Shown here one piece after another: positions 11,880 to 34,637 of a stretch of 64,000 bases of DNA. A model generated the notes under the pieces. The model was not told the origin of the DNA and ran no database searches. It saw only the letters and a program-made list of their open reading frames with translations. Source of the DNA: Polyangia bacterium (GTDB lineage: Bacteria > Myxococcota_A > Polyangia > JAAYKL01); the NCBI GenBank assembly GCA_050287845.1, contig JBNKCR010000018.1, positions 15,268 to 79,267 of the forward strand, in the 5' to 3' direction. Both the position numbers and the translations under genes were made by a program. Numbering within the stretch: the stretch's first letter is position 1; each line of letters starts with the position of its first letter.

Positions 11880-12578
11880 ATGCCGGTACGTGGCGATCGT
11901 CTCGCATGGCCTTATGTCCCCTGTCTGCTGATGTGCATTCTGATTGTTCAGTCTCCATGCATTGCGAAAACCGATACCGAAGGTCCGCCACGGCCCACCA
12001 CCTGCGACACTCTTTCCGGCGCCACCCGGGTCAAACTGCCTCTGGCGCGCATTGTTGCGTTGGATTTGGCCATGTACGCGGGGTTGGTGATTTTGTGGCC
12101 TTACGCGTTTTCGCCAAGTGAAGGCAGTATTGAGCAGTTCAGGGAGAGCTGGACCGAACGGCCATACATGAACTACAGTAAAATCTTTTTTGAGCTGGAT
12201 GACGATCCGTGGGCGATTAACACGGTCCTTCACGGACTGTACGGTTCAGAAGTGTATCTGGCAGGTCGCACCATCGGCCATTCCGGTCTGGTATCTTTTT
12301 TATATGCCATGTTCGCTTCCGTGACCTGGGAGTATCTGGTGGAGGGATGGTTTCATCAGCCGTCGGCCATCGATTTGGCCTGGACCCCCGTGGCCGGTGC
12401 GGTGATTGGCGAGCTGCGCTTTCAGCTACTCCGCATCATCATGATGCACGTGTCTTCCCGGATGCTGCGTAATATCCTCATGACCACCCTTGACCCCATC
12501 GGCCAACTGGAACGCGCCATCATGGGGTGCACCATCCGATGCGGCTACAGCTTGCGGAGATCGTCCAGTTCTTTCTGA
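11880..12578 (+). CDS. DUF3943-like membrane protein
   Basis: DDDPWAINTVLHGLYGS..GR..G..S..WEYLVE..PSAIDL..G.VIGE matches the DUF3943 pattern as recalled; starts 1 nt after the upstream stop. Confidence 0.75.
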   Translation: MPVRGDRLAWPYVPCLLMCILIVQSPCIAKTDTEGPPRPTTCDTLSGATRVKLPLARIVALDLAMYAGLVILWPYAFSPSEGSIEQFRESWTERPYMNYSKIFFELDDDPWAINTVLHGLYGSEVYLAGRTIGHSGLVSFLYAMFASVTWEYLVEGWFHQPSAIDLAWTPVAGAVIGELRFQLLRIIMMHVSSRMLRNILMTTLDPIGQLERAIMGCTIRCGYSLRRSSSSF

Positions 12579-14500
12579 AATCCGCCGCTGAGGATGGGGA
12601 AGCGGCACCAGGTTTTGGGATCGAGGTTTTCGTCATCCAGATGAAAGGAGGGCGCGTATCGCTCGCGTTTCCATTGATTCCGGGCCCACAGGGTGAAAAA
12701 TCGAATAATCCAGTTTTTCAGCACATCGGTGGGGGCATCCAGTTCAATCTGTAGCAGTTGGAAGATTTGAACCGGGCTCTTTCGGTCGCGAATGGCCAGC
12801 TTTTCAATGGACTCCAGTACGGTATAGGGCATCAAATCAGTTTCATCCGTCTGGGAGCGTTCCAGGGGACGGAGCTCCGCAGTGGGATTCTGTGCGGTAA
12901 TAACGCTCAGGAACGGCAGGGGGGGCAATCCACAGACCCCTTTCAGTTCCACCTCGGACAGCCACTGGAGCAGATATGCCTTGTCGATACCGGCAATGGG
13001 GCTCAATCCACCACTGGTATCTCCATCCATGGTTGCATATCCCACTGCTGCTTCGGAGCGGTTACTGGTGGAAACCAGCAGGGCACCCCGGATATTGGCC
13101 AGCATCCACACCCCCGGTGCGCGCACCCGGGCCTGAATGTTCTGAAGCGCAAGGTCATCCTGTTCCCAGGAGAGCGGTCGGTTCAGGGCATGGCATAGCA
13201 TATCGGTGTACGACGATACTAGACCATCCACATCCCATTGCATGAACCGCGCGCCGATGGACTGGGCCACCGTCCGTGCCGCAGCGAGGGTAATTTCTGA
13301 GCTGTTGCGGGTCCCCTGGTACACACAGGAGAGCAGCTCGTTGACTATCGCCGACGCAGTATCCGCTGCCCCGGTCAGAAACGATGCCCTGGCGCGAATT
13401 CCTTCAGGGCCAATCTCTTTGAGTGCCAACTCCACCATGATTCTTACGAGGACGGCCACTGCCCCGGAATCTGCCCCGCCGCTTAAGGACAGGACAAACC
13501 CTTTTGAATGGCTTTTGGTCATGTAATCCCACAGACCAAGACTGACCGCGCGAGCGAACTCATCGGACTTTACGGACGCCATCTCCCGGATGGGCTTCTG
13601 GGGCAACGGTGTACGTGGCGCTTCAAAATGGGGCGCATCACACACCACCTCCGGGGTTCGCTCACCGGACGAGCCGGACGATCGTTGGGTTTTCTGCATG
13701 CGAGTGAATTCAATATCAACATCGTGGACCAGCAGGTCAACGTCCCGGAATGTGAAACGCGGCCCGCTGGCCACCATTTTGCCGGCGGACGCGATGAGTG
13801 CACCGCCATCATACACGATTCGGCCAGCTTCGTTACCCACCATGTTGGTGTAGATATATGTGGCGGCGAAGGCCCTGGACCCTTCACGAACAAAGGACTG
13901 ACGGGTTTCGTACTTGCCGAAACTGAAATGACTGGCACTGGGATTGAGGATAATATCCACACCGCGTCTGGCCAGCCGGATACCGGGACGTTCGGCGACC
14001 CAGGCGTCTTCGCAGATTTCGAACCCGATGCGAACATTATTGATATTAAAGAACAAATCGCCAAAAGGAACCGGATTTCCATCTATGCGCAGCTCACCCC
14101 GCCGTCCGGCCTTCCATGGTTTGAACCAGCGTGGTTCATAGTGAATGCCATCGCCGGCCAGAAATTGCTTGGCCACTATCCCGCGAATCTGCCCGGTACT
14201 GATTAGTGCGGCAGCGTTATACAGCGCGCTTTCAAAGAATATCGGAAGCCCCACTGCCACAGTGATATCGGTGCAGTCCGCAGTACACGCCAACAGGGTG
14301 GAGAGTGCGGTGTCCTGCACGAAGGGTGAGAGAAAGGCATCTTCGCAGCCATATCCGGTGATAGCCATTTCAGGCAGGCACAGGAGGGAGACCCGTTGTT
14401 CTTTTGCCAGCTGAATTGCCTTGCGGATGTTGTTGAGGTTCCGGCCCCAGTGGAGCGGTGTCTGGTTCAGGGTTGCGGCAGCGACGCGTAATGCCTTCAT
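12545..14500 (-). CDS. nadE: Glutamine-dependent NAD+ synthetase
   Basis: Nitrilase domain (PE, K, EICED) plus synthetase domain (SGGADS, QNIQAR, GYATMDGD, PTAEL, QTDE, NQWKR). Confidence 0.96.
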   Translation of the reverse strand: MKALRVAAATLNQTPLHWGRNLNNIRKAIQLAKEQRVSLLCLPEMAITGYGCEDAFLSPFVQDTALSTLLACTADCTDITVAVGLPIFFESALYNAAALISTGQIRGIVAKQFLAGDGIHYEPRWFKPWKAGRRGELRIDGNPVPFGDLFFNINNVRIGFEICEDAWVAERPGIRLARRGVDIILNPSASHFSFGKYETRQSFVREGSRAFAATYIYTNMVGNEAGRIVYDGGALIASAGKMVASGPRFTFRDVDLLVHDVDIEFTRMQKTQRSSGSSGERTPEVVCDAPHFEAPRTPLPQKPIREMASVKSDEFARAVSLGLWDYMTKSHSKGFVLSLSGGADSGAVAVLVRIMVELALKEIGPEGIRARASFLTGAADTASAIVNELLSCVYQGTRNSSEITLAAARTVAQSIGARFMQWDVDGLVSSYTDMLCHALNRPLSWEQDDLALQNIQARVRAPGVWMLANIRGALLVSTSNRSEAAVGYATMDGDTSGGLSPIAGIDKAYLLQWLSEVELKGVCGLPPLPFLSVITAQNPTAELRPLERSQTDETDLMPYTVLESIEKLAIRDRKSPVQIFQLLQIELDAPTDVLKNWIIRFFTLWARNQWKRERYAPSFHLDDENLDPKTWCRFPILSGGFQKELDDLRKL

Positions 14501-16484: not shown

Positions 16485-17519
16485 ATGCAACGGGTCGCTT
16501 TGGATTGGAAGAATTTGGGATTTACTTATCGGAAGACCGATTACAACATACGGTATACATGGAAAGATGGCGTCTGGGGTGAGGGCGTACTCAGTTCTGA
16601 TGAGTATATTCCAATGCACATGGCAGCGACTTGTCTTCACTATGGTCAGGAAGCCTTCGAAGGTCTGAAGGTTTACGAACAGCAGAACGGAGATGTAGTT
16701 GTCTTTCGCGATGTGGAAAACGCACTGCGCCTCAATCGTTCCTGTAAAAAAATCTTCATGCCGGAAGTTCCCGAAAAAATGTTTCAGGATGCCATCGATA
16801 GAGTTGTTCACGCCAACCGTCATTTTGTACCTCCGTTTGGCACCGGAGCAACCCTGTATGTGCGTCCGCTAATCATTGGTACCGGCGCGCGAATCGGCGT
16901 ACGCCCTGCCGATGAGTACATGTTTATCGTGATGGTGACACCGGTGGGTCCATATTTCAAAGAAGGGTTCAAGCCGGTCACACTGGTTGTGGAAGAAGAG
17001 TTTGACCGAGCTGCGCCCAATGGGGTTGGGGACGTGAAAGTGGGCGGAAATTACGCTGCTGGACTGCGCGCAAGCTTTAAAGCCAAAATGGCAGGATATA
17101 CCGAAGCCCTCTATCTCGACGCCCGGGAAAAGAAGTATCTGGATGAATCCGGTCCTGCGAATTTCTTCGGTGTAACGCGGAATGGTCAATATGTAACACC
17201 GGCCAGCAACTCGGTATTGCCATCGATTACCAACATGTCACTGATTCAGATTGCAGAAGATATGGGAATGCGACCCCAGCGACGCTCCATTGCCGTGGAT
17301 GAGATATTTGATTTTGTGGATGCCGGATGTTGCGGTACTGCGGCAGTGATTACGCCGGTCAAATCGATTACCTGGCGGGATAGAAAAGTGGAATACTGTC
17401 TGGACGACAAGCCCGGAGACTATTGCACCCGGTTATACAACCGGCTCGTCAACATTCAGTTGGGTCTGGAAGCCGACAAGTATGGCTGGATTCGAAAATT
17501 GCCTCTGTTCGAGGGATAA
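16485..17519 (+). CDS. ilvE: Branched-chain amino acid aminotransferase
   Basis: LHYGQEAFEGLK, YVRP, PLP lysine in KVGGNYA, LPSIT, GTAAVITP. Confidence 0.96.
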   Translation: MQRVALDWKNLGFTYRKTDYNIRYTWKDGVWGEGVLSSDEYIPMHMAATCLHYGQEAFEGLKVYEQQNGDVVVFRDVENALRLNRSCKKIFMPEVPEKMFQDAIDRVVHANRHFVPPFGTGATLYVRPLIIGTGARIGVRPADEYMFIVMVTPVGPYFKEGFKPVTLVVEEEFDRAAPNGVGDVKVGGNYAAGLRASFKAKMAGYTEALYLDAREKKYLDESGPANFFGVTRNGQYVTPASNSVLPSITNMSLIQIAEDMGMRPQRRSIAVDEIFDFVDAGCCGTAAVITPVKSITWRDRKVEYCLDDKPGDYCTRLYNRLVNIQLGLEADKYGWIRKLPLFEG

Positions 17520-18090: not shown

Positions 18091-18966
18091 TCAGGGAATA
18101 ATTTTATTGATGGGATATTCGATAATGCCTTCAGCGCCCGCTTCTTTCAGTTTGGGCAGCAGTGTTCGCACGATGGATTCTTCGACAATAATTTCAATCG
18201 CACGCCAACTTTCATCGCTGAGATACGAAACGGTGGGGTTATGCAGTGAGGGCAGTAGCGCGATGATGGTATCCAACGTGTCCACGGAGCAATTCAATTT
18301 CAAACCAACAAAATTTCGCGCCCGGATGGCGGCTTCGAGCATAAGAGCGATTCTCGATATTTTGTTTCTCTTCCACGCATCTTTCATGGCGTCGCGATTG
18401 GCAATCAGTCGCGTGGTTGAAATTTGGATATCGTCAATGATTTTGAGGTTATTGGCGCGCAAGGACGATCCGGTTTCGGTAATTTCCACAATGGCGTCGG
18501 CCAGCTTTGGGGGCTTGACCTCAGTGGCGCCCCATGAGAATTCAACCTTTGCGCTGACACCGTGTTTTTTCAGATATTCTCTGGTAAGATTCACTACTTC
18601 AGTGGCGATGGTCTTTCCTTCGAGATCTTTTGGGCCTTTTATATCAGAATCATTGGGGACGGCCAAAACCCATCGGACATTGCCGTAACTGGCTTTGGCG
18701 TATTCCAGCTCAGCGACCTGTTCAACATCTGAACCGTTTTCAACGATCCAGTCCAATCCGGTCAGTCCAATATCCAGAATCCCGTTCTCAACATATCGGG
18801 ACATTTCCTGGGCACGAATCAGCATGCATTCGATTTCAACATCATCAATGGATGGATAATAACTTCTGGAACGAAAAGTAATATTGTAACCCGCTTTGGC
18901 GAACAATGCGGCGGTGCTTTCCTGCAAACTGCCTTTGGGAATTCCAAGTTTCAATTTCTGGCTCAT
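18091..18966 (-). CDS. hisG: ATP phosphoribosyltransferase (long form)
   Basis: [37 protein letters not shown]-terminal regulatory domain GAEGIIEY. Confidence 0.96.
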
Positions 18967-18978
18967 AGCGACTCTCCC

Positions 18979-19374
18979 TTATTTTTTATATACCTGGCTC
19001 GGATCGAATACGATTTCCTCAACGATATTCAGCTCACCATCATCATCCAGCCGGCGATAAAAACATGAATTATATCCCTTGTGACAAGCCGCGTTGCCGA
19101 TTTGATTCACTTTCACCAGAACGGTGTCTTCATCACAATCCACGTAAATCTCTTTTACTTCCTGAATATTTCCCGAACTCTCTCCTTTGACCCACAACTG
19201 ATCACGGGATCGAGAATAAAAGGTGGCTTTCTTTGTTTTCACGGTATGCGCAAACGCTTCTTCGTTCATAAAGGCAACCATCAGAACTTTACCGGTTTCG
19301 TAGTCCTGAACAATTGCGGGCAATAGGCCGTTTCCAAGTTTGTCAAAGTTTAATTTCATTTTGAATAGCTCCAT
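18979..19374 (-). CDS. hisI: Phosphoribosyl-AMP cyclohydrolase
   Basis: GLLPAIVQD, YSRSR..LWVKGESSGN, DCDED, ACHKG..SCF; no fused HisE domain. Confidence 0.95.
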   Translation of the reverse strand: MELFKMKLNFDKLGNGLLPAIVQDYETGKVLMVAFMNEEAFAHTVKTKKATFYSRSRDQLWVKGESSGNIQEVKEIYVDCDEDTVLVKVNQIGNAACHKGYNSCFYRRLDDDGELNIVEEIVFDPSQVYKK

Positions 19375-19525: not shown

Positions 19526-20413
19526 TTATTCAGCCGAGTTTTCTGCTGGTTTCGCTGCTGCTGCCGGCTTGGCTACCGCTGCTGGTTTAGCCGGTTTGGC
19601 CGCAGGCTTGGCCGCTTTAGCCGGTTTAGCCGCAGGCTTGGCCGCTGCTGCGTCCTGATTTTCTTCGTTGACGATTTCGAGCAGTTCGATTTCGAAAATA
19701 AGTGCGCTATTCGGACCAATTTTCGATCCAGCGCCGCGCTCCCCATAACCCAGATCCGGTGGAATAAACAGCGTCCATTTTGAACCGACTGGCATCAGTT
19801 GAAGCGCTTCGGTCCATCCTTTCACCACACGGCCAACGGGGAAAGTTGCCGGACGGTTGCGTTTGTAGGAGCTGTCAAACTCTGAACCGTCAATCAGCGT
19901 CCCTTTGTAGTGAACAGATACGCGATCTTCCGCAGTGGGTTTGGGACCATCGCCTTCTTTTTCGATTTTATACTGAAGTCCGGATTCCGTTGTAACAACG
20001 CCTTCCTTCTTTTTATTTTCTTCAAGGAATTCATCGGCCTTCTTTTTATTTTCAGCGGCAGAAGCTTCACGCTCTTTGCGTTCTTCCTCTCGTCTGATTT
20101 TTGAATGCTCGCGTTTCACTTCGATGCGCGCTTTATCATCCAGAAGCCCCGCCTCGGGGTCGTCCTTGTCGGCCATACCATCAACAACGCCTTTCAGAAA
20201 GACGTCGTTTTTCAGTTCCATTCGATTGCGGGACGCGGAACGTCCCACATCATATCCGACCGCATAGTTCAATTTGTCGTTCAGGTCCTTCAGATCCTTT
20301 TTCGTGACTTCAGCTTTCTTGGGCGCCTCCGGTTCTTTACATTCGGGGCAGGGCTTATTATTGCATGCAACAAACAGCAGAGTTACGGCACAGGTTGCAA
20401 TCACTTTGTACAT
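19526..20413 (-). CDS. FKBP-type peptidyl-prolyl isomerase (FkpA/Mip-like lipoprotein) with an AKPA-repeat tail
   Basis: Lipobox FVAC; NYAVG; TTESGLQY; VHYKG..FDSS; VVKGWTEAL; GYGERG; start at MYKV after GGAG. Confidence 0.93.
   Translation of the reverse strand: MYKVIATCAVTLLFVACNNKPCPECKEPEAPKKAEVTKKDLKDLNDKLNYAVGYDVGRSASRNRMELKNDVFLKGVVDGMADKDDPEAGLLDDKARIEVKREHSKIRREEERKEREASAAENKKKADEFLEENKKKEGVVTTESGLQYKIEKEGDGPKPTAEDRVSVHYKGTLIDGSEFDSSYKRNRPATFPVGRVVKGWTEALQLMPVGSKWTLFIPPDLGYGERGAGSKIGPNSALIFEIELLEIVNEENQDAAAAKPAAKPAKAAKPAAKPAKPAAVAKPAAAAKPAENSAE
19545..19652 (-). repeat. Coding tandem repeat (AKPA/AAKP)
   Basis: Near-duplicated unit TTTAGCCGGTTT(G/A)GCCGCAGGCTTGGCCGC; encodes AAAAKPAAKPAKAAKPAAKPAKPAAVAKPAAAAKPA. 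Confidence 0.85.
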
Positions 20414-20616
20414 GGCTTTCTCCTTTTCATTATTGAATCTAATCAAATAACGTATGTCTCACCGGGGACCATATTGCGGTGTTTCTGATTTTCATCGCAG
20501 AATTCCGTATTCTTCGTTCAATCAGACATCCACCGATGTGGTCCAGTGAACGGGATATTTTCAGTTCGATCGCATTCCGTCAATCCCGAAAACTGTTTTT
20601 TTTAATGACAGTAAGA

Positions 20617-22710: not shown

Positions 22711-22841
22711 TGACACCGACCCGTGAGCTTTTCACCATGGCGAAAAGGGCATTCGTGTTGAAAAACCGGTTATAGAAGCATAGGGCTCAAAATCAAGTGC
22801 ATTTTGCAATGGTGGGAACAAATGTCGCTGTCTGAGCACAC

Positions 22842-23465
22842 TCACATTCGACGATAAACGCCCATGACCACCCCCAGCAATTGCATGGGGAGAAAATCCT
22901 GGCGACGTACCATCACAGGAGCACAATTGCTGTTTGCGGGAACAAACCGGATATGATCACGCTCGGGATGATAGTACCGAACCGCTGCGTTGTCGCCGAG
23001 CAGCGCCACAACGACATCGCCTTTTTCGGCAAACATCTGTTTTTTCACAAAAATAAAATCGCCGTTGTGAATTCCGGCCTGAAGCATGGCATCGCCGTTT
23101 ACCCACATGCCAAAAACTTCTTTGGTGTTGCCAAGAAGGAATCGGTCAACCGTAATGTAGTCTTCAATATTCTGTTCGGCCAGAACAGGTTGTCCGGCTG
23201 TGACCCGACTCACAACAGGAATCTTCACGGTATCCACCTGCTTTTTTTCTTCCATGTTCACAGGTCGGAGTGCCCGGGATTTCATATCTTCCCGTTTGAG
23301 ATACCCCTTTCGTTCCAATGCGCGGAGATGATCGTTCACGCCATTGGTTGAACGAATCCCCATGTGACGTCCAATTTCTCTCAGTGTTGGGGGATAGCCA
23401 CGATCTGCAATGGAACTGGTGATATAATCGAGAACTTTTTCCTGTCTCTTGGTCAATCCTTGCAT
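22842..23465 (-). CDS. lexA: LexA repressor, Myxococcus-type; both catalytic dyad residues substituted
   Basis: LTKRQ, GYPPTLREIG, STNGVNDHL, RVTAGQP, S24-like C-terminal domain; GGAGGAG RBS before MQGL. Confidence 0.95.
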   Translation of the reverse strand: MQGLTKRQEKVLDYITSSIADRGYPPTLREIGRHMGIRSTNGVNDHLRALERKGYLKREDMKSRALRPVNMEEKKQVDTVKIPVVSRVTAGQPVLAEQNIEDYITVDRFLLGNTKEVFGMWVNGDAMLQAGIHNGDFIFVKKQMFAEKGDVVVALLGDNAAVRYYHPERDHIRFVPANSNCAPVMVRRQDFLPMQLLGVVMGVYRRM

Positions 23466-23521
23466 ATAAAATACTCCTCCACAAAAAGACAACCTGTTAT
23501 TTGGTGCAGTAATTGATTGTT

Positions 23522-23551
23522 ATACTACTGAACAGCCGGTTACGGAGTCAA
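23522..23551 (-). promoter_or_regulatory. Putative sigma70 promoter of lexA with a LexA-box-like site in the spacer
   Basis: Minus strand TTGACT-N18-TAGTAT; the spacer holds GTTCAG (CTGAAC at 23528-23533 on +), resembling the Myxococcus LexA half-site as recalled. Confidence 0.55.
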
Positions 23552-23597: not shown

Positions 23598-26500
23598 CTA
23601 ACGGATATCAATTTGTCCACTGTTCATATGTTCGGTTGTCCGCAGGAATTGCTGATAATCGGAATAGTGTTCCGGAGAAACGCGGTCGATGTGAATATCA
23701 GCGGTCATCTCCACCGTTAATTGTTGATTCCCTTGCGAAAACTGCTGACAGTAGCCGGCTTGCGGCGTTGTGATACGGATGCATGCATCCTGGGGAGTCT
23801 TTTTCACTTTCATTGATGATGGCAGTGATATGTGCACGATTCGACGTGTTTTCTGGTAGGCAGCCAGCACCAGCGGCAGCATTCTCGAGGATTCGCCGCT
23901 GGAAAACTGCGTGAAATCCACCGACAGTGGCAGGTTTAAATGTTGCCCATCATCCGTGAACTGTACTATATCAGGTACGTCTATATTACATTCAACAATG
24001 AGCGGTTCCTGAAGTGCCGACTCATTACGTATGGTGTACGTATTGAGAACCGCTTCGGGAAAGTAGCCGCTGAGCAGATGGGTTTCAATCAGTTTTCGCC
24101 GTTGTGACGAGGGTTTCTGCAGTTCTTCGCGAAGATATGCCGCCTCGTCTCCCTTGAGTGACAGGGTAACAGTACCGGTCGCATTGCCATCAACCGAAAC
24201 CTTCAGTGATGCGTCCACTGTTGTTTCGTCTTCTGGAATCTGTCCCTTATCCATTTTTTCAATACTGCAACTTTGTGGAAGCAAAGTGGATTGATTTCGC
24301 AGGTGGGTGGGTATCAGACCAATTGGTCCGTATTTCTGATCGAGACTTATCCATCGGTTGTCTGAAAGCTTCACAACGGGAACGGTGTATCGGTTCAATT
24401 GGGCAACATTTGCCTGGGTGCTGTCGTCCCATGGGGTACTCGCGATGCCCAATTCGGCTGTCAGACCTGAAAGCCTGGCCATATATACAAAAAGTCGCGC
24501 TCTGTTTCCCCGTCGTCGACTGAATATATGGGAGGCTGGCTCAAACCACTGCATATCATCTGCTATGTTCGTCATAATCCAGTTGTATATTGCCGCTGCC
24601 TTTGCATCAGGATCCGGGCCTACATCTCTGAGAATATGGGTGTTGATAAACCGGATAATCTCCGGGTCCGGCTGGGATTTGCCATGAAGCTGTCTGTTCA
24701 GCCATTGGCAATATTCATTCATGGATGCATTGGCGGTGACACGCACGGATGGCAGATACTCCACCGGATCCGGTGCACTCGGTTCGCTGGATAAAGGGGG
24801 AATATTCCTGGCCCGAAAGGTGACAGTCTGTATTCCATCGAAATGGTTTTCTTCCGGTTGAGGTGCATTTCCCCGAATATCGTATTGCATTCGCGCCCCT
24901 GCCGGCGCGACAACAATCAGTTCAGAACGAACGAAGGTGGACTGAAAATCCCGGAAGAAAAAAGGTTCCGTGTCAAAACCACCGGGAAAGATTGAATGGG
25001 GCGGCGCATGGGTGAGGCTTTCAAACTCGATGAAATCTCCAACCGCCAGATGGGGCAGGGAGATACTGGATTTATACTCAACAGAAGTGGGATACAGAAT
25101 TTCGAGATTGGGTTTGATCACTCGGGCCGTCAGGATTTCCGCCCCTGGCGGTACGTCCAGTTCACCGTGGGTATCCACCGCATCTACGGAGTTCACTTTT
25201 CCAATCCAATGGGTCAGCTGCATGCCCGAACCGAAATCATCCACGAGATACACCATCCGGTCGAGAATCCACGCAAAATCGGTGGATACATCGGGATTCT
25301 CCGCAAGGTGCGCGCGGATGGTCTGAAGGCCGTCGATACGATAGGATTCAATTGCTGATTTTCCGGTGACGAGTTCGCATGTGTTAAAAAAGTCCGGATT
25401 CATTGGCCAGAGTGTCATTCTCCCACAGATTTTCCTGGCCTTTTTCACTTCTCCCGCTGCCAGGTAGGCATCAAGAAGCAGGATTTGGGTTTGAATGTCC
25501 AGAGGGAATTTCGATGCGGTTTCTTCAAGCTTGGAAATACTTTTCTGCAGGTGGCCGGCGTTTGACAATGTGCTGGCCACATTCAATTGCAAATCAAGGT
25601 TGTCGGGCTGCAAGGCCGCGATTTGGCGAATCCGGTTGGCCGCTTCGCTGAACTTTCCGTTCCGAGCCAATTCCGTGGCAAAAACCGATGATGCGGCCGC
25701 GCATTGAGAAATGTTTCTGGAAGCGCGTTCTGCAAGATCGTAGTTCTCATCGCCAAGGGCAAGGGCATATTCCCAGTTATGCACTGCACAGTTGGCGCCC
25801 ACCAGTTTCTTCAATTCATCCAGTGTGTGGTGTGCAGATTTCTTCCATTGATTGTCACGATAGTAATCCAGCAGGGTGAAATACAGGATCGGCTCCGTGG
25901 GCACCGTCGCAATCGCTTGTTCCAGCATCGCAATGGCATCTGCTGTTCTGCCATTCCGTTGTTCGTGCTCCGCGAGAAACACTGCGGCTCTGGCAAAATG
26001 GGCATTCTGTTCCAGGGCACCCCGATACAGCGAGCGCGCATTTTCCATACCGGTTTCAAACGCATTGAAGGGTGTCATCAGCTCGTATTCCGCACGACGC
26101 AACTGTAGCCGGGCAACGACGTGTTTACGAGGCACACGCGGATTGAGCCATGACACAGGGTCGACATTCCAGATATCGTATTGCATTTTGGCCAACGTGG
26201 CAGATTCGGTCTGCGGTACGGGAACCGGCATTGTATGAGTGGCGCCCGGCGCGGTATGATGGGCAGAGAGGCGCCAGACTGTACCCGAAGCGACAGCTTC
26301 CATCCCGTCGGTGAGCACAGAGAGGGAAAACGCCGGGGTATATTCCGGAGAATACGCTTCAATCCGTACTTCGTGGACCCCCTGTATCAATGGAACAGAA
26401 AACCACCTGTTCTCTGGAAGCCACCGGGCCTCAGACCTCTGTGCCCACGCCTCATGGCCATTAATCCATACGCGCATGTCCGCGGTGCCATGAAGACGAA

Positions 26501-27251
26501 AATAGAAGGTGCCGGACTGGTCTGCCCGAATGGTTGTTCTGGCCACCACTGTGCCGGAAAACTGATTCATCGGCGGGTCAGCGGTGATGTGACATACGGA
26601 ATACTCTCTGTCATGCACTGGCAATGAGGGGCGACCACCGCCACCTTCCAGCGCTTGGGGCCAGACATCCAGACGCCTCAGCGCTTCAACAGATTGCTGT
26701 CCCTTTCTATCCGCACCAAATGTTCCCGCGATGGTCCAGGAGGTGATGCAGCCGGTACTTGCCAGTACTGCAGCAGATTCCCCGGGATTCCCGCTGTTCT
26801 GGAGAAATGAAAAATGCAGGGTTTTCAGTTGAAACACGGCTTCTGGCGCCAACTCGCCAGGACGGTTGGACCAGCTGGTGAGCCATGGTGTGAGGCGGTC
26901 TTCGAAATCCCGGACCCTGTTGCGGATTTCCACAATCGCCACAGCCGCCGCCAGACCTTCCCAATGAAGCGCCCTGGATTTTCGCGCCGCTTCCACCGTC
27001 TCGATATAGCGCTCCAGTGCCAACTCCGGTCGGCCGGTGTCATTATATACAGTGGCGAGCAGAAACCGGTCTCCGGGGGTGTCGCGTTTTATCAGCTTCT
27101 GTTCGAGGTCGGCATCCTCTATGTCTGAGAAATACAGCGGCAAGACTTTTTCAGACAACGTTTTTGAATGCTTCAACCCTGATGCGCACCCGCAACAGAG
27201 CAGAAGGGGGGAAAGAATTATCCATACTGATTTCAGAGTTTGTTTCATCAT
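23598..27251 (-). CDS. Large lipoprotein: TPR + DUF3857-like + degenerate transglutaminase-like domain
   Basis: Lipobox-like CCGC; TPR-rich middle; LPHLAVGDFIEF (DUF3857-like); AIYNWI..I followed by RRGNR instead of the GDC catalytic motif. Confidence 0.8.
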   Translation of the reverse strand: MMKQTLKSVWIILSPLLLCCGCASGLKHSKTLSEKVLPLYFSDIEDADLEQKLIKRDTPGDRFLLATVYNDTGRPELALERYIETVEAARKSRALHWEGLAAAVAIVEIRNRVRDFEDRLTPWLTSWSNRPGELAPEAVFQLKTLHFSFLQNSGNPGESAAVLASTGCITSWTIAGTFGADRKGQQSVEALRRLDVWPQALEGGGGRPSLPVHDREYSVCHITADPPMNQFSGTVVARTTIRADQSGTFYFRLHGTADMRVWINGHEAWAQRSEARWLPENRWFSVPLIQGVHEVRIEAYSPEYTPAFSLSVLTDGMEAVASGTVWRLSAHHTAPGATHTMPVPVPQTESATLAKMQYDIWNVDPVSWLNPRVPRKHVVARLQLRRAEYELMTPFNAFETGMENARSLYRGALEQNAHFARAAVFLAEHEQRNGRTADAIAMLEQAIATVPTEPILYFTLLDYYRDNQWKKSAHHTLDELKKLVGANCAVHNWEYALALGDENYDLAERASRNISQCAAASSVFATELARNGKFSEAANRIRQIAALQPDNLDLQLNVASTLSNAGHLQKSISKLEETASKFPLDIQTQILLLDAYLAAGEVKKARKICGRMTLWPMNPDFFNTCELVTGKSAIESYRIDGLQTIRAHLAENPDVSTDFAWILDRMVYLVDDFGSGMQLTHWIGKVNSVDAVDTHGELDVPPGAEILTARVIKPNLEILYPTSVEYKSSISLPHLAVGDFIEFESLTHAPPHSIFPGGFDTEPFFFRDFQSTFVRSELIVVAPAGARMQYDIRGNAPQPEENHFDGIQTVTFRARNIPPLSSEPSAPDPVEYLPSVRVTANASMNEYCQWLNRQLHGKSQPDPEIIRFINTHILRDVGPDPDAKAAAIYNWIMTNIADDMQWFEPASHIFSRRRGNRARLFVYMARLSGLTAELGIASTPWDDSTQANVAQLNRYTVPVVKLSDNRWISLDQKYGPIGLIPTHLRNQSTLLPQSCSIEKMDKGQIPEDETTVDASLKVSVDGNATGTVTLSLKGDEAAYLREELQKPSSQRRKLIETHLLSGYFPEAVLNTYTIRNESALQEPLIVECNIDVPDIVQFTDDGQHLNLPLSVDFTQFSSGESSRMLPLVLAAYQKTRRIVHISLPSSMKVKKTPQDACIRITTPQAGYCQQFSQGNQQLTVEMTADIHIDRVSPEHYSDYQQFLRTTEHMNSGQIDIR

Positions 27252-30200
27252 GGCCGTTCATTCCGGAGATGGAGAGTAATCTGTCGGCGTTCCATGGCAT
27301 CGATTTTCAGAATAAAATCCATAAATGCATTGTACTGCTCTGGCAGCACAACCTGTTGCCTGAAAATCAAGGAACGGGTCACCGCAGCGCCTTCCGGGGT
27401 GGCACGGACGATTCGGCGATAAACGCCAAACTCGGATTCCATCACCAATTCACCAACTGGAATTCTGGCTGTCATTTCTTTGGGAACAACGTATTGCACG
27501 TCGAGCGAACTCGTTCTGGCCGGTCCGAGAACAAGAGGATGAACCCGCTTTTTCAGTTGAGCATACTTGCGTTTCAGATAGAGCGGCGGAAGCAGGCGAA
27601 AGGTGGCGACATTTTTATTGATGTGGCAGAAATTTGCGACCGATGCGTCAAAATGGATTTCCGGGGGCGCCTCCAGGTCATTCATCAAACGGAAATCCGC
27701 ACGATCCACATGAAGTCCAGGATACTTTTCAGTGAACTGTTCCTCCAGTATATCGCGGTTCTGAGCCGTGGAATAATTTTTGCGCAGCCATGGCGCAAAC
27801 AATGGGCCACGAGCGATGATGTCTGTCGTCATTTTCATGCTGCAGTCCGATTCAATCCGCAGCACTGACGATTCGTTGAAAACCGACTGGGTTTCGCCGG
27901 TCACTGGCGTTTTACGCAGCGCCACTTCAGTGGTTCCGATAACCAGCGCACTGATACCCTGATCTTCAAATGGCAAATCTCCGGTTCCGTGAAACGTTGC
28001 GGTGCCATCCAGCCACAAATCATCATCCGGCAAGTAGGCAATGGCATGATTGAACAATGCCAGCGACGGATACTTCATCTTGAGTTCTCCGGCGGAACGC
28101 GTTCGAACCAGAGCGAGATGAGCTCTGATGCCTGCTTCCCTCAACATGGCTACCAGAAGAGAGGCGGTATCTTTGCAGTCTCCGAATCCCCGGGCAAGCA
28201 CCCGGGGGGTACTGTAGGGTTTGTACCCATGAATGCCGAATTCCAGTCCCACATACCGGATGTTGGTGGTGACCCAGTTGTAAATAGCCGCTATCTTCTG
28301 TTTTTTACTTTTCAGTTTTGCGGTGAGTTCCCTGACCAGTTGCTGAACCGCGTCTCCTCCCAGCAGTTGTGGGCGAATCAGATCTCGATACCACCGTTCC
28401 ATATCGGTGAAGGATTCCCAGGACGTTGCATGAATCACCTTTACCAGTGACATGCTTCCCGGTATACCGGGCTCTTCGGGGATGGCTGGCAGGTCGCTGG
28501 CAGTATATACATTTGTGACAGTGCTGCTATTTTGTATCACCCGTGGCGGCGCAAGGAAATCCGCTTCAATCCGAATATTGAAATCCGCAGGACGTATCAG
28601 TACAAACTGAAACTGCTCCACCGGCATGTCTCCATTGACTGGCACAATCGCACCGAAGTACCGGCCGAACATGCGCTCTCTCCGGATGTCATCAATCCGA
28701 AACTGATACTCCACAACGTCACCAATTGCAGGTTTGGGCACTTCAATCACTTCGGCGTCAATATCGTAGTACAGACGATACCAGGGTTCTGAAACCGGGA
28801 ATGTACCGCGTGCTGTGGCTTCAAGTGTCCGTCCATCCGCGCGGTACAGTCGTGCTTTCTGAATACGGACAGACTGATCTGATGAAAACTGCTCACTGTA
28901 TTGTTGCCATTGTCGCGCTCCATCTTCAGTGGCAATAGCCACCGCCACCTGGGTCACGGTGGAGGACAACCCGGATGCATGGACCCGCGTGATGGTATTG
29001 TTCACCAGGTAGCAGTCCTTCCGTTGCTGCAGACAGCGTTCCTTCCGCTTTTTCAACTCCGTTTCCCCGATGAGATACGGCGTGTCAAAAGAATCAGAAG
29101 GACGTAGATGTTCAAGCAGGTCGCGCAGTGCTTTATCGCCCGGATTCTGCTGAAGTGCTTCGCGGTAATGACGGATTGCCAGTGCTTCATTGGTTTTGAG
29201 GTAGTATTCTCCCGCAAGTTTCCGGAACTCACTTACTCCCGGCGCCTCCAGGAGTAGAGCACTCAATAATTTTTCCTGTGCGTGACCAGGAGCCGCCATT
29301 CGCAGACGCAACAGCTCAGTCAGCATCTCCACGGGGGGAGCGCCAATTTTTTTCCACTGCGCCAGAACAGCCCGGGATCTGGATTCCATTCCTTTGCCTG
29401 TGATGTGAAGTTTGCGCAAATGAATGCTGAAGTCTGAATACGCCGATTCGATGGCGTTTGAAAAAATTTGCGTTGAGTAGATGTCAGCAACTGTTCCCAC
29501 CAAACTTTCGGCTGCACATTGTTTTTCCATGGGGGTCGCGTCCGGTCGACTCAATTCATTTCGCAGTTTCCGGGCCGATTCCGGCAGGGTATGGGCGTAC
29601 AGCCCGAGCAGTGCACAGCGGGCTTCTGGCTGGGATGGATTCTTTTTCAATATCTTCTGGAGCCGCACGATATTCTCCCGGTCGGGTCGGGTATCCAGAC
29701 TCAACAGCAACAGTTGTATCGCCGCGACGTTCCGGGAGGCGTCATCTATGTTCACTTGACGGTACGCCTGTCTTTTTTCGTTTACATCATCGGAGAGGGA
29801 CGCCCATGTTTTGCATGGGGAGAGGGTTCCCAACGTTTCACACGCGGTCTGGGCGGCATCTTTTACTTCGGTATCTTTACCAACGCTTCCTGTAAGTTGC
29901 GCGTATTCAGCATAATTGCCCAGATGGGTGGGGCGCACATTTCTTTTCCCGGGACGGGGACGCAACATGTCGAGCAATGTACGATGTGGTACGATGGCTG
30001 TCCGGATGTGGTCGTAGGTTCTGAATCCCTGTGCCTGCGATGAAACCGAATGCAGGGGCTCGCCCGATGGCGAGAGAATTCGAGCGAAGAATTCTGACGT
30101 TCCCGATTCATTGCTGCAAATCTTTACCGTGAGAAGATTTTCTCCAGCAGGCAGATTCAATGGGACGTCGTGACGATTGATGTCAGCCCGATACCAGTTT

Positions 30201-30853
30201 GTATCTTCGAGTATCAGGGTGTCGTTCAAGAAAACCCGGGCCTGACCGCCCGCACCGAACAACAGGTGATGACGACCGCCCCGGGGGGATGCCACGGTGG
30301 TCTGCGCCATGACACAGATATTTTCTGTTGCTGAGAACACCGACTCAAATGTTACTTTCCCCAGTCGTCGCGTCAGCCAGCTCGATGGAAATACACATGG
30401 TGCATCGATTTCAGATGGTACGCAATTGGGCGATATTTCCGGTTGGCTCATATGATAAGCGCTGGAAAGAAACTTCTCGGTCAGTCCGATGGATGACTCA
30501 TTGGGAAACGGACCTGTGATTTGCCAATCGGTTAAAAAACCCATATCCGCAACCGCGGCATTGGCTTTTGCTGGGTGGCCGGTGAGCAGATTCAGTTTGG
30601 CCAACAAGTATTGGATGCGCGTCCTGGCAGCCGGATGCAGTCCTTTCAGTTGCATTGTTCCTGTCAGCACCTGATGGATCATGTCTTTTCCAACTATTGG
30701 ATATTCTTCGAAAATTTTCAAAACGTACAGGTCAGCGAATCGGGACCCGGGGGAGAGTGCAAGCATTTCAGCGGGGCGGGATTCCCCGCGAGCCGACGCG
30801 ACACTGCCGACGAACGGGATGAGTATGATCAGAAAAATAATAAAATGTTTCAT
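27248..30853 (-). CDS. Large secreted protein: TPR + DUF3857-like + transglutaminase domain
   Basis: Signal peptide MKHFIIFLII; WQITGPF; IGDVVEY; IRYVGLEFG; catalytic GDCKD, FNHAI, WLDGT; start moved from the ORF-track start. Confidence 0.88.
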   Translation of the reverse strand: MKHFIIFLIILIPFVGSVASARGESRPAEMLALSPGSRFADLYVLKIFEEYPIVGKDMIHQVLTGTMQLKGLHPAARTRIQYLLAKLNLLTGHPAKANAAVADMGFLTDWQITGPFPNESSIGLTEKFLSSAYHMSQPEISPNCVPSEIDAPCVFPSSWLTRRLGKVTFESVFSATENICVMAQTTVASPRGGRHHLLFGAGGQARVFLNDTLILEDTNWYRADINRHDVPLNLPAGENLLTVKICSNESGTSEFFARILSPSGEPLHSVSSQAQGFRTYDHIRTAIVPHRTLLDMLRPRPGKRNVRPTHLGNYAEYAQLTGSVGKDTEVKDAAQTACETLGTLSPCKTWASLSDDVNEKRQAYRQVNIDDASRNVAAIQLLLLSLDTRPDRENIVRLQKILKKNPSQPEARCALLGLYAHTLPESARKLRNELSRPDATPMEKQCAAESLVGTVADIYSTQIFSNAIESAYSDFSIHLRKLHITGKGMESRSRAVLAQWKKIGAPPVEMLTELLRLRMAAPGHAQEKLLSALLLEAPGVSEFRKLAGEYYLKTNEALAIRHYREALQQNPGDKALRDLLEHLRPSDSFDTPYLIGETELKKRKERCLQQRKDCYLVNNTITRVHASGLSSTVTQVAVAIATEDGARQWQQYSEQFSSDQSVRIQKARLYRADGRTLEATARGTFPVSEPWYRLYYDIDAEVIEVPKPAIGDVVEYQFRIDDIRRERMFGRYFGAIVPVNGDMPVEQFQFVLIRPADFNIRIEADFLAPPRVIQNSSTVTNVYTASDLPAIPEEPGIPGSMSLVKVIHATSWESFTDMERWYRDLIRPQLLGGDAVQQLVRELTAKLKSKKQKIAAIYNWVTTNIRYVGLEFGIHGYKPYSTPRVLARGFGDCKDTASLLVAMLREAGIRAHLALVRTRSAGELKMKYPSLALFNHAIAYLPDDDLWLDGTATFHGTGDLPFEDQGISALVIGTTEVALRKTPVTGETQSVFNESSVLRIESDCSMKMTTDIIARGPLFAPWLRKNYSTAQNRDILEEQFTEKYPGLHVDRADFRLMNDLEAPPEIHFDASVANFCHINKNVATFRLLPPLYLKRKYAQLKKRVHPLVLGPARTSSLDVQYVVPKEMTARIPVGELVMESEFGVYRRIVRATPEGAAVTRSLIFRQQVVLPEQYNAFMDFILKIDAMERRQITLHLRNERP

Positions 30854-31139
30854 TGCTGGCAAGTATATGAGGCTGCTGTTGAAAAGCAAATTGCATCTGC
30901 TGCAGACAATGGCGAATGATGTGATTTTGACGGGTATATCCCATTTCTTTTTTCTGCAATGCATTCTATTCTGATGACATCCGGCGACGACCGAAGTTCC
31001 CGAGCAACCGCTGGATTGCGAAACGCCTGAGACTGACACATTGAAATTCCCGCTATTCAAACCACCCCGGCAGGTTGAATTTCGGGGAAACAATGTGGTA
31101 GGACCGGTTCGATAAATTCTCGAAAAAAAGGAATCCCCC

Positions 31140-31829
31140 ATGAAACCATGGATTAAAATCGATGAAAAGCAGACTGCCGATGGCATGCTTCAGCTGATGC
31201 GCCGGGGAAAAAAGGATTTCATTATCAAACTGGATAACCAGATTCTGATGAACAGCCATCTCAGTTTGACTGAGCAGGCGCTGGCGACCAGTGCTGTCGG
31301 TCGATTGCAGAATCCGAACGGTGCGCGGATTCTGATTAGCGGGCTGGGAATGGGGTACACGCTTAAGTCGGCATTAGATGTATTACCATCAAGGTGCAGC
31401 GTTACCGTAGCGGAACTCAATCCCATTGTTGTTGAGTGGTGCAGGGGAGAACTGGGATCACTGACGGAATACCCGCTGAATGACCATCGGGTGAGGGTAG
31501 TCACCGGCGATGTGAAGGAAGTTATCATGGATGCTGCCTATCTCGCCCAAAATCCGTTCGACGCCATTATTCTGGACCTCTACGAAGGAACTTCGGAAGC
31601 CAATTTCGATGATATGCACGACCACTACGGTCTGGAAGCATTGCAGCGAACAAAGGACGCCCTGAAAAACAACGGTGTGCTGGCGGTGTGGACCGAGGGC
31701 GAGGACCGGGGATTTGAAAGACGCCTTGGACGCGCCGGGTTTACTGTTGAACAGACCCGTCCCGGCAAGGGTGGACCGCGTCATGTGGTCTATGTTGCGG
31801 CAAAGAAATCGAACCGTCGGGGCAAATGA
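31140..31829 (+). CDS. Spermidine-synthase-like SAM-dependent methyltransferase
   Basis: LMNS, ILISGLGMGYT, VAELNP, GDV, FDAIILDL, GVLAVW. Confidence 0.88.
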   Translation: MKPWIKIDEKQTADGMLQLMRRGKKDFIIKLDNQILMNSHLSLTEQALATSAVGRLQNPNGARILISGLGMGYTLKSALDVLPSRCSVTVAELNPIVVEWCRGELGSLTEYPLNDHRVRVVTGDVKEVIMDAAYLAQNPFDAIILDLYEGTSEANFDDMHDHYGLEALQRTKDALKNNGVLAVWTEGEDRGFERRLGRAGFTVEQTRPGKGGPRHVVYVAAKKSNRRGK

Positions 31830-32958: not shown

Positions 32959-33306
32959 ATGCCAAATACAAAAACGATTGCGGGAATCCAGCGCGGGCCG
33001 GACTTTGAACGGGAAGTTCACGAAGTTCATCATGTGAAACGGCTTGATAACGAGGTGAAGAACAACTCTAAAGCGGAGGTGAATGAGCCACTTATCAAGG
33101 CAGCGGTAGACGCGGGAAAGGAGGTTGCGTCTTCGATGGGACAATGGGTGGACGTGACCTATGACCGGGAGAATGAGATGATCATCATGAAAATCCGAGA
33201 TATTAACGGAGACGAAGTGGTGCGTCAGATTCCCCCGGAGGAAATGATTCGAACCGCTCAGAGAGTCAAACAGCAGCAGTCGCAGTTTCTGAACAGTGTG
33301 GTTTGA
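32959..33306 (+). CDS. flaG: Flagellar protein FlaG
   Basis: Signature D..GDEVVRQIPPEEM; directly upstream of fliD; GAGGT RBS. Confidence 0.9.
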   Translation: MPNTKTIAGIQRGPDFEREVHEVHHVKRLDNEVKNNSKAEVNEPLIKAAVDAGKEVASSMGQWVDVTYDRENEMIIMKIRDINGDEVVRQIPPEEMIRTAQRVKQQQSQFLNSVV

Positions 33307-33335
33307 AGACGTTTTACAGATAAGGAGCAGCTAAC

Positions 33336-34637
33336 ATGGGAATCACATTCTCGGGAATCGCTTCCGGTATTGATACCGGCGCCATCGTTGAGTCGTTTGT
33401 TTATTCGGAACGGGCGCCGATCCGTGCCATGGAAGCGCAGAAAAAGGACTACAACAGTCAGCTGGATAATGTTCGTACGCTGAACTCCAGGATGCAGGCG
33501 CTTCAGAAGACCATGCAGGGACTGAGCAGCATCGGCGATTTTCTGTCTTTTTCTGCGGAATACTCGGAGAAAGATGCCATGTCGGTGTCAGCCAATGGCG
33601 ACGCATCACCCGGTGTGTACACCGTCAACGTGGACCGGCTGGCTAGAGCGGAAAGAGACTATTCCACCGCAACCTTCAGCAGCAAGGACACGAAGGGAGT
33701 CGCCGGTACCGGGACGCTTTCAATCACAGTTGGCGCCAATGACGCCGTGGATATTGATGTTACCGATTCGATGACACTTGAAGATATTGTTAATAAGATC
33801 AACGGATCGGAAGCCGAGGTGTCCGCAAGTCTCGTATTCGATGGCAGTGAATATCACGTGCAGATTTCAGGGTCAAAGACCGGAACAGTGGCTGAGGCCG
33901 GCATTTCATTCGGTGAAAGTGGCACCTTGAACTTCGGATTTGCGGAGTACCAGGGGGCGCAGGACGCCCAGATGACCATTGATGGGATTACTGTCAGCAG
34001 TTCAACCAATACGTTCGAGGATGTCCTCACCGGAGTCACTATTAATATTAATGAAGAGACGACGGATTCATTTCAGATGGAAATCAAGGCGGACAACTCC
34101 AGCATCAAAGAAACGTTGGAGGGCTTTGTCGACAGTTATAATGAAATTCTGGGGCTGGTGAAAAAGGATACCACATCGAATTCAACGTTGCGTTCACTGC
34201 GATTACAGATGGGGACAATGATTGCCAATGCGCTTGGGGATGTGGGGGGCACCTACACCGCTTTATCTCAAATTGGAATTTCGACCAACAATGACGGCAC
34301 TTTGAAGCTGGATGGGTCTGATTTGGAAGACGCCCTTGCCCGGGATACGCGAGGTGTGGCTCAACTTTTCTCCGGAAGTGACGATGGTACTGTCGATGGG
34401 ATGGGGGATTTGCTCGATGAGTTTATCGATCGGTATGTGTCCAGTGTGGATGGCGTGCTGAAAACTCAGGAAAGTGGTCTGCAGAGAATGATCACCAATA
34501 TCGACGATTCCATATTGCAGGCAGAAGATCGGGTGACGGCTTACGAGCAGGGTCTTACGACCAAATTCACTGCGATGGAAATCAGTATGAACGAGCTGCA
34601 GTCTCAGATGAGCTATATGAACATGATGGGCTTTTAA
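33336..34637 (+). CDS. fliD: Flagellar filament cap protein
   Basis: ITFSGIASGIDT, YTVNVDRLA, AQDAQMTIDG..SSTN, FVDSYN, LSQIGI..DGTLKLD, KFTAME. Confidence 0.96.
   Translation: MGITFSGIASGIDTGAIVESFVYSERAPIRAMEAQKKDYNSQLDNVRTLNSRMQALQKTMQGLSSIGDFLSFSAEYSEKDAMSVSANGDASPGVYTVNVDRLARAERDYSTATFSSKDTKGVAGTGTLSITVGANDAVDIDVTDSMTLEDIVNKINGSEAEVSASLVFDGSEYHVQISGSKTGTVAEAGISFGESGTLNFGFAEYQGAQDAQMTIDGITVSSSTNTFEDVLTGVTININEETTDSFQMEIKADNSSIKETLEGFVDSYNEILGLVKKDTTSNSTLRSLRLQMGTMIANALGDVGGTYTALSQIGISTNNDGTLKLDGSDLEDALARDTRGVAQLFSGSDDGTVDGMGDLLDEFIDRYVSSVDGVLKTQESGLQRMITNIDDSILQAEDRVTAYEQGLTTKFTAMEISMNELQSQMSYMNMMGF

Follow-up and report, generated by a model that had tools for sequence, protein, structure and literature searches.

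The window, meaning the whole 64,000-nt stretch of DNA analysed here, carries an open reading frame whose translation is a 207-residue LexA-like protein, LexA1 (Table 1); the source assembly comprises 7.17 Mb at 96% completeness. LexA1 passed the NCBIfam LexA equivalog TIGR00498 (201.8 bits; cut-off, 110.95) and matched PF00717. With a winged-helix N-terminal domain followed by an S24 C-terminal domain, it has the architecture of a full-length LexA (TIGR00498/COG1974). The catalytic Ser is absent, the nucleophile position being occupied by Ala126 (motif GDAM), and the catalytic Lys is absent as well, the general-base position being occupied by Arg163 (motif AAVRY). In an alignment with E. coli LexA chains, Ala126 corresponded to residue 119 and Arg163 to Lys156; translation and alignment together bear out the preliminary description, which had reported both catalytic residues as replaced. 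The best PDB match, 1JHH, reads GMAM at the nucleophile motif, with Ala at residue 119. The Ala-Gly scissile bond is present (Ala90-Gly91, aligned to the E. coli site), and the surroundings of the active site are altered at three further positions (Table 1). An assembled contig from another study (X3) spans lexA1 with 65 differences, none of those listed falling in the dyad codons. Positions 22723-23498 are also spanned by a contig from an RNA library (X6), although this does not prove that lexA1 is transcribed.

Just upstream of lexA1, two large genes with DUF3857 and transglutaminase-like domains stand in tandem. Among 66 lexA loci checked, which include duplicates, 22 gave a match to the gene nearer lexA1. 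The other window genes named in Table 1 were identified by translation only.

Table 1 Features of the lexA1 locus and neighbouring genes (window positions).
Feature	Position	Strand	Remark
lexA1 CDS	22842..23465	-	207 aa; orthologue of chromosomal Myxococcota-type LexA, dead dyad
Winged-helix DNA-binding domain, aa 1-70	23256..23465	-	50/51 Ser/Lys-conserved positions kept in Arg-type
Ser86 at E. coli Gly80	23208..23210	-	Gly in 135/137 Ser/Lys relatives
Ala90-Gly91, former scissile bond	23193..23198	-	P1 Ala in only 14/19 Arg-type sequences
Ala126 (GCC), replaces nucleophile Ser119	23088..23090	-	Alignment
Asn159 and Ala161 at E. coli Glu152 and Thr154	22983..22991	-	Glu in 134/137, Thr in 137/137 Ser/Lys relatives
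Arg163 (CGG), replaces general base Lys156	22977..22979	-	Alignment
Shine-Dalgarno-like GGAGGAG	23474..23480	-	Sequence
Sigma70-type promoter TTGACT - 18 nt - TAGTAT	23522..23551	-	Same lexA1 architecture in 21/21 family genomes
Putative LexA1 operator GTAACC-GGCT-GTTCAG, between -35 and -10	23528..23543	-	GTTCAG half (23528-23533) invariant in family
Tandem DUF3857/transglutaminase-like genes	23598-27251 and 27248-31186	-	TPRs in first
Glutamine-dependent NAD synthetase, branched-chain aminotransferase, hisG/hisI, FKBP-type isomerase, flaG/fliD	12545-14500 (-), 16485-17519 (+), 18091-19374 (-), 19526-20446 (-), 32959-34637 (+)		Ordinary-looking; translation only

Distribution and origins of the substituted dyad

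We surveyed the family of the source organism, represented by 21 genomes, in which lexA1 is full length in 19 and cut by a contig end in two (G010 and G020). The full-length genes encode ten Ser/Lys proteins, eight Ala/Arg proteins (own genome, three congeners, G009, G012, G013 and G014) and one Gly/Arg protein (G016), so that the pair suggested by the preliminary description for an orthologue survey recurs in three congeneric and four other family genomes. Synonymous codons differ among the substituted genomes (GCC, GCG or GCA, and CGG, CGC, CGT or AGA). Independent genomes thus carry the same residues via different codons, and the orthologues rule out a sequencing error, against which the preliminary description had also argued.

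Among 164 distinct LexA1 sequences, 143 were Ser/Lys, 17 Ala/Arg, one Gly/Arg and one Ser/Arg, with two truncated; Arg is the residue at the Lys position in all 19 substituted (Arg-type) sequences. A profile search added 11 sequences, including three extra Ala/Arg and one extra Ser/Arg. In other families of the class, all 60 sampled sequences (taken from 126 matches) were Ser/Lys with Ala-Gly, as were a further 11 LexA sequences from outside the family, and no Arg-type LexA1 was seen outside the family among the sampled sequences and the profile search. The dyad change is therefore lineage-fixed and, within this sample, restricted to one family.

In a LexA tree computed with the two dyad columns removed, the Arg-type sequences formed a main clade, a G013/G016 pair and one Ser/Arg sequence placed among Ser/Lys proteins. 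A tree of RpoB, RecA and FtsE recovered the same two groups, clade A (G000, the own genome, to G003, G009, G012 and G014) and clade B (G013 and G016), and forcing the two together was rejected (p-AU 0.039). The dyad was apparently lost in two separate lineages of the family; support for two origins is only moderate, since G012 and G016 are without RpoB and fill under 30% of the columns in this tree. Because Lys-to-Arg and Ser-to-Ala are each one base apart, we infer that the convergence on Arg is partly explained by easy single-base mutations. The Ser/Arg sequences P0105 and P0132 suggest that the Lys can change first; both have eroded cleavage loops and are possibly further or intermediate losses.

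Selection on LexA1

Within-genus dN/dS was 0.005-0.030 for the N-terminal domain (residues 1-70; six pairs) and 0.014-0.024 for the C-terminal domain (residues 79-207) in four of six pairs, two being saturated; these values are rough, with synonymous sites near saturation and dS above 1. Both LexA1 domains are under strong purifying selection. The possibility of a decaying gene, raised in the preliminary description, did not survive: low dN/dS in both domains and full-length reading frames led us to reject pseudogene decay.

We then took the positions that 137 Ser/Lys sequences conserve to 90% or more and scored their retention in the 19 Arg-type sequences. Retention was 50/51 in the DNA-binding domain, 28/41 in the C-terminal core and 2/8 in the cleavage loop, and the P1 residue of the Arg-type sequences was Ala in 14, Pro in three, Ser in one and Thr in one. 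The intact cleavage site of the preliminary description thus stands for LexA1 itself but not for the lineage, where P1 is not Ala in 5/19. Because the cleavage loop is relaxed across Arg-type proteins, the intact Ala-Gly of LexA1 means little, and its retention loses its value as a hint of cleavage in trans. RecA-contact residues of LexA are named in two cryo-EM papers (10.1101/2023.10.30.564768; PMC9926225). Of these positions, Phe118, Lys142 and Asp158 are each kept in 19/19 Arg-type sequences and Val153 in 17/19, and the Leu113 equivalent is Met, Phe or Leu; RecA binding by LexA1 may still be possible, since these residues are mostly kept.

LexA2, the mutagenesis cassette and the recA genes

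The preliminary description had pointed to a second lexA and to recA as genes to look for, and the own genome contains an intact lexA2 and two recA genes. LexA2 retains Ser, Lys and Ala-Gly and is 30% identical to LexA1; its gene lies directly upstream of imuA-like and imuB-like genes (matches below curated cut-offs). Second-lexA loci were of this imuA-imuB type in 17 of the 20 fetched, from Ser/Lys and Arg-type genomes alike. Eight of nine Arg-type genomes have lexA2, complete with Ser/Lys in six and cut by contig ends in two; in G014 the start is visible at the contig end. No lexA2 was found in G012 (88% complete) or G010.

Most lexA2 genes are preceded by the palindrome CCATACAWWTGTATGG, the LexA2 box, which occurred exactly in 13/21 genomes as against 0/21 for a reversed control. 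Exact boxes in the own genome precede lexA2, dnaE2 and a DUF763 gene (0.06 exact sites expected by chance), and a box with one mismatch precedes a cytosine methylase gene. The genome thus has the two-LexA cassette arrangement, with a second intact lexA ahead of imuA-imuB and its own box, found also at dnaE2. The DUF763 gene (G000:C108:2771) is preceded by a LexA2 box also in G001, and the C5 cytosine methylase gene (C91:56733) also in G002; in G001 a LexA2 box precedes a DUF3795 gene. These three are candidate damage-inducible genes. In G010, where no lexA2 was found, a LexA1-type site lies in the imuA promoter of an imuA-imuB-dnaE2 cassette, which ties this motif to SOS control.

Both recA genes lie inside operons (G000:C115:52399-55447 and C24:11624-14396), with no LexA box nearby. 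By their motifs, the genes before one of them are cinA-like and 2'-5' RNA ligase-like, and the gene before the other is comM-like. The third S24 match in the own genome encodes a short protein that has no DNA-binding domain; other S24 gene types, two LexA-like and one UmuD-like, were seen at L075 (G015), L076 (G011) and L093 (G014).

The putative LexA1 operator and motif searches

The sequence TTGAC-N12-14-GTTCAGT was found at the lexA1 promoter in 21/21 family genomes, with the putative operator between -35 and -10. In Myxococcus xanthus, the LexA box is given as CTRHAMRYBYGTTCAGS, and LexA shifts the lexA and recA2 promoters (PMC9705874). The left half of the lexA1 operator matched a mean of 5.75 of 6 positions in the 12 non-Arg genomes versus 4.1 in the nine Arg-type genomes.

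No LexA box was found at recA in 31 loci of either group, or in the promoter-proximal 300 nt of recN and uvrA in 15 loci, where one GTTCAG occurred at -300 inside the upstream gene; distal operon promoters of repair genes were examined in the own genome. Operators at DNA-repair genes were accordingly not encountered in the Arg-type genomes. Since recA, recN and uvrA are without a box in both groups, LexA1 of this family seems to have been without most classical targets even prior to dyad loss. Both groups contain WYL/PafBC-like genes, none of which is paired or beside repair genes in the own genome.

A weight-matrix scan of the own genome returned 425 hits, 88 of them intergenic, and was too noisy to define a regulon, and a strict palindromic search for LexA1 boxes gave counts near those of the reversed-pattern control. 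One site from the palindromic search, common to G002, G004, G017 and G020, was set aside because it falls within the end of a coding sequence. In the direct-repeat search, only the nrdJ/ftsE site recurred across genera in the 30 loci examined, and no recurrent new LexA1 target was found among the Arg-type genomes, several candidate loci being without annotation. The preliminary description had considered the repressor either uncoupled from SOS and co-opted or induced in another way. Uncoupling gains support from the lost dyad, the intact lexA2 and the two recA genes; co-option to a new regulon was not found in these searches. The footprints show old operators lost and a few retained.

Apparently lost targets: pyrG and a radical SAM gene

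Directly before the pyrG -10 element, GTTCAG was present in 11/11 non-Arg genomes with the promoter in view (nine Ser/Lys and two of unknown dyad) versus 0/8 Arg-type genomes (six clade A and two clade B); G018 (promoter off the contig) and G012 (pyrG not found) were left out of this count. The pyrG -35 and -10 elements align throughout, Arg-type genomes included, while GTTCAG is lost in both lineages. Counted by lineage, the association comprises two independent pairs, both concordant (sign test, p 0.5). Operator loss in both lineages matches what an unreleasable repressor predicts, but the order may have been the reverse, with the operators lost first and the dyad drifting afterwards. Left half-sites are weak at both pyrG and nrdJ. 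In most genomes the pyrG leader (L346-L355 and relatives) has a conserved, short inverted repeat (CCCGTG...CGGG) immediately downstream of the -10, which may represent CTP-sensing control by start-site choice or by a hairpin.

A repair radical SAM gene, whose best match was TIGR03916 at a score under the cut-off, was found in 9/12 non-Arg versus 0/9 Arg-type genomes; it was not found in three Ser/Lys genomes either, and three Arg-type genomes are 71-89% complete. The nine non-Arg promoters comprise seven with GTTCAG, one with a mismatched site and one with a LexA2-like box, the last representing an operator swap in G006, as does the LexA1-type site at the cassette of G010. We equate this TIGR03916-like gene with COG4277. 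In a published list, the putative SOS targets include a COG4277 gene (PMC8565304).

Retained sites at nrdJ/ftsE

The GTTCAG half-site in the nrdJ leader was kept in 11/11 non-Arg genomes, 7/7 of clade A and 0/2 of clade B, and the tandem pair between nrdJ and ftsE was intact in 10/11, 4/7 and 0/2, respectively (G006, where the two genes are not adjacent in the locus, was left out). Three GTTCAG/CTGAAC sites in the divergent region flank two NrdR-like boxes, an arrangement largely kept in clade A. The NrdR-like boxes and the DnaA-box-like 9-mers nearby were assigned by consensus. This intergenic region (G000:C80:5900-6400; L169, L143), with its NrdR-like, DnaA-box-like and three LexA1-type sites, is conserved across the family and is possibly a junction of replication, dNTP and division control.

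The nrdJ product is the only ribonucleotide reductase found in the own genome in a search of classes I and II. A permanently bound strong repressor at nrdJ is hard to accept; with a sole class I/II reductase and the sites kept, binding may be weak or architectural, release may occur in another way, or another protein may read the sites.

Discussion

LexA1 shares its domain order, TIGR00498 match and Ala-Gly bond with canonical LexA (E. coli, M. xanthus), and differs in having both the Ser and the Lys replaced. The family as a whole, Arg-type or Ser/Lys, also departs from canonical LexA in having no box before recA, recN and uvrA. The nearest studied relative, M. xanthus LexA, has the fixed GTTCAG half in common with the LexA1 operator and likewise a small direct regulon (PMC9705874); it is encoded by a single lexA (PMC9705874), whereas the present family mostly has two. 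LexA-independent damage responses exist in M. xanthus (PMC12288472).

Natural non-cleavable LexA proteins and two-LexA systems have precedents in the literature (PMC1524924; PMC9578287). Synechocystis PCC 6803 Sll1626 is a natural LexA homologue without cleavage determinants that is not DNA-damage inducible (PMC1524924), as LexA1 is predicted to be. In Sll1626 the Ser and the Ala-Gly site are both absent, and the protein has acquired non-SOS targets (crhR; PMC1524924); LexA1 lost its cleavage determinants via different changes, with both dyad residues replaced, the ancestral operator kept and targets lost rather than visibly gained. LexA1 differs further in that an intact paralogue coexists and in that the loss seemingly occurred twice, with the same Lys-to-Arg change.

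In Pseudomonas putida and Xanthomonas, the second lexA heads a lexA2-imuA-imuB-dnaE2 cassette, and both LexA proteins are cleavable. Two LexA proteins with independent boxes, as here, are described for these systems (PMC9578287); in the own genome, unlike these, the chromosomal LexA1 is dead and Ser/Lys persist only in the cassette LexA2. The E. coli S119A and K156A alleles change the same positions as LexA1, but they were made in the laboratory and greatly reduce fitness when DNA is damaged (PMC4980697), whereas the LexA1 change is naturally fixed and conserved. Our literature search, which covered titles and abstract openings of mostly open-access papers, returned no report on this lineage or on K156R, and none naming pyrG or nrdJ as a LexA target in myxobacteria.

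We consider it reasonably probable, though well short of settled, that LexA1 acts as a damage-blind repressor of a pruned regulon and that LexA2 keeps mutagenesis inducible. LexA1 would be the vertically inherited chromosomal LexA, and RecA-stimulated self-cleavage and damage induction are predicted to be absent: in E. coli, S119A LexA is not cleaved under alkaline or RecA conditions, and G80A LexA is cleaved about 5-fold more slowly (PMC4980697). By analogy with S119A, activated RecA could not destroy a LexA1 unable to cut itself. Dimerisation and binding to GTTCAG-type operators would persist, to judge from the conserved DNA-binding domain, dimer core and sites, and LexA1 would repress lexA1, and probably also the nrdJ/ftsE region, constantly and without regard to damage, or would hold them at a set point. 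Targets that need damage induction would be gone, since Arg-type genomes have the pyrG operator erased and yielded no boxed radical SAM gene, and the inducible mutagenesis genes imuA-imuB and dnaE2 would be under the separate, intact LexA2 through its own palindromic box. Since LexA2 is present across the family, it would have made the loss of LexA1 cheap rather than causing it. The host bacteria are uncultured, and this regulation is read from sequence footprints.

A bolder formulation, which we put forward only tentatively, is that LexA1 turned into a non-proteolytic regulator at least twice within the family along the same path (Ser-to-Ala/Gly and Lys-to-Arg), keeping its operator and dropping damage targets, and that in clade A it contributes to setting nucleotide supply and division through nrdJ/ftsE, with some signal or partner taking the place of self-cleavage in its release. 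We think it rather unlikely, in turn, that LexA1 is switched by a non-SOS route (a ligand, partner, antirepressor or Clp/Lon) and has been re-wired to couple nrdJ and ftsE to growth, perhaps with NrdR. The three sites around the two NrdR-like boxes, largely kept in clade A, would fit such a switch, as would the sole class I/II reductase, the strong selection on the C-terminal domain, the Arg shared by all 19 substituted sequences and the redox link reported for Synechocystis LexA (PMC1524924); G013 and G016, however, lost or eroded all nrdJ sites yet keep LexA1, and neither a recurrent new target nor a linked partner gene was found.

Induction might also proceed without cleavage, with activated RecA filaments reversibly titrating LexA1 off weak operators; a damping effect of LexA1 on RecA is conceivable too. 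In E. coli, the S119A protein retains binding to activated RecA (PMC3159453), and K156A LexA was used for trapping the RecA complex (10.1101/2023.10.30.564768; PMC9926225). Most residues of the RecA pocket and patch are either unchanged or conservatively replaced in Arg-type proteins, and the lexA1 operator is weaker in Arg-type genomes. We nevertheless regard titration as improbable: S119A strains are SOS-inactive in vivo (PMC4980697), the pocket-lining residues of the cleavage loop are relaxed, and, with induction persisting, neither the operator at pyrG nor the radical SAM gene need have disappeared.

LexA and UmuD are known to undergo cleavage between molecules, and LexA2, present in most Arg-type genomes, might cut LexA1 in trans at its retained Ala90-Gly91, in a heterodimer or between molecules, so that damage-inducibility is kept. 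This is very improbable given the Pro, Ser or Thr at P1 in 5/19 Arg-type proteins, the relaxation of 6/8 conserved loop positions, the distance between LexA1 and LexA2, the missing lexA2 in G012 and the loss of damage-related targets. We give hardly any credence to lexA1 as a slowly decaying vestige or to the dyad as an assembly artefact: extra substitutions round the active site, long branches in some members and a residual regulon that may be little beyond lexA1 itself would suit a vestige, but the reading frames are full length, dN/dS is low in both domains and the same residues are reached via different codons.

On our preferred reading of LexA1 as a damage-blind repressor, the findings touch on how a bacterium lives without this switch. 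A non-cleavable LexA is costly to E. coli under DNA damage, which is the rationale for SOS-inhibitor drugs (PMC4980697). The present family would show how a lineage tolerates such a protein, with LexA2 covering mutagenesis and the operators at induction-requiring genes erased. The sites at pyrG and nrdJ, both nucleotide-supply genes, suggest that these are LexA targets in these bacteria. Dead and live LexA1 alleles stand side by side with near-identical DNA-binding domains, Ser/Arg intermediates and two apparent origins, and the family thus offers a natural experiment on regulon pruning after loss of the switch.
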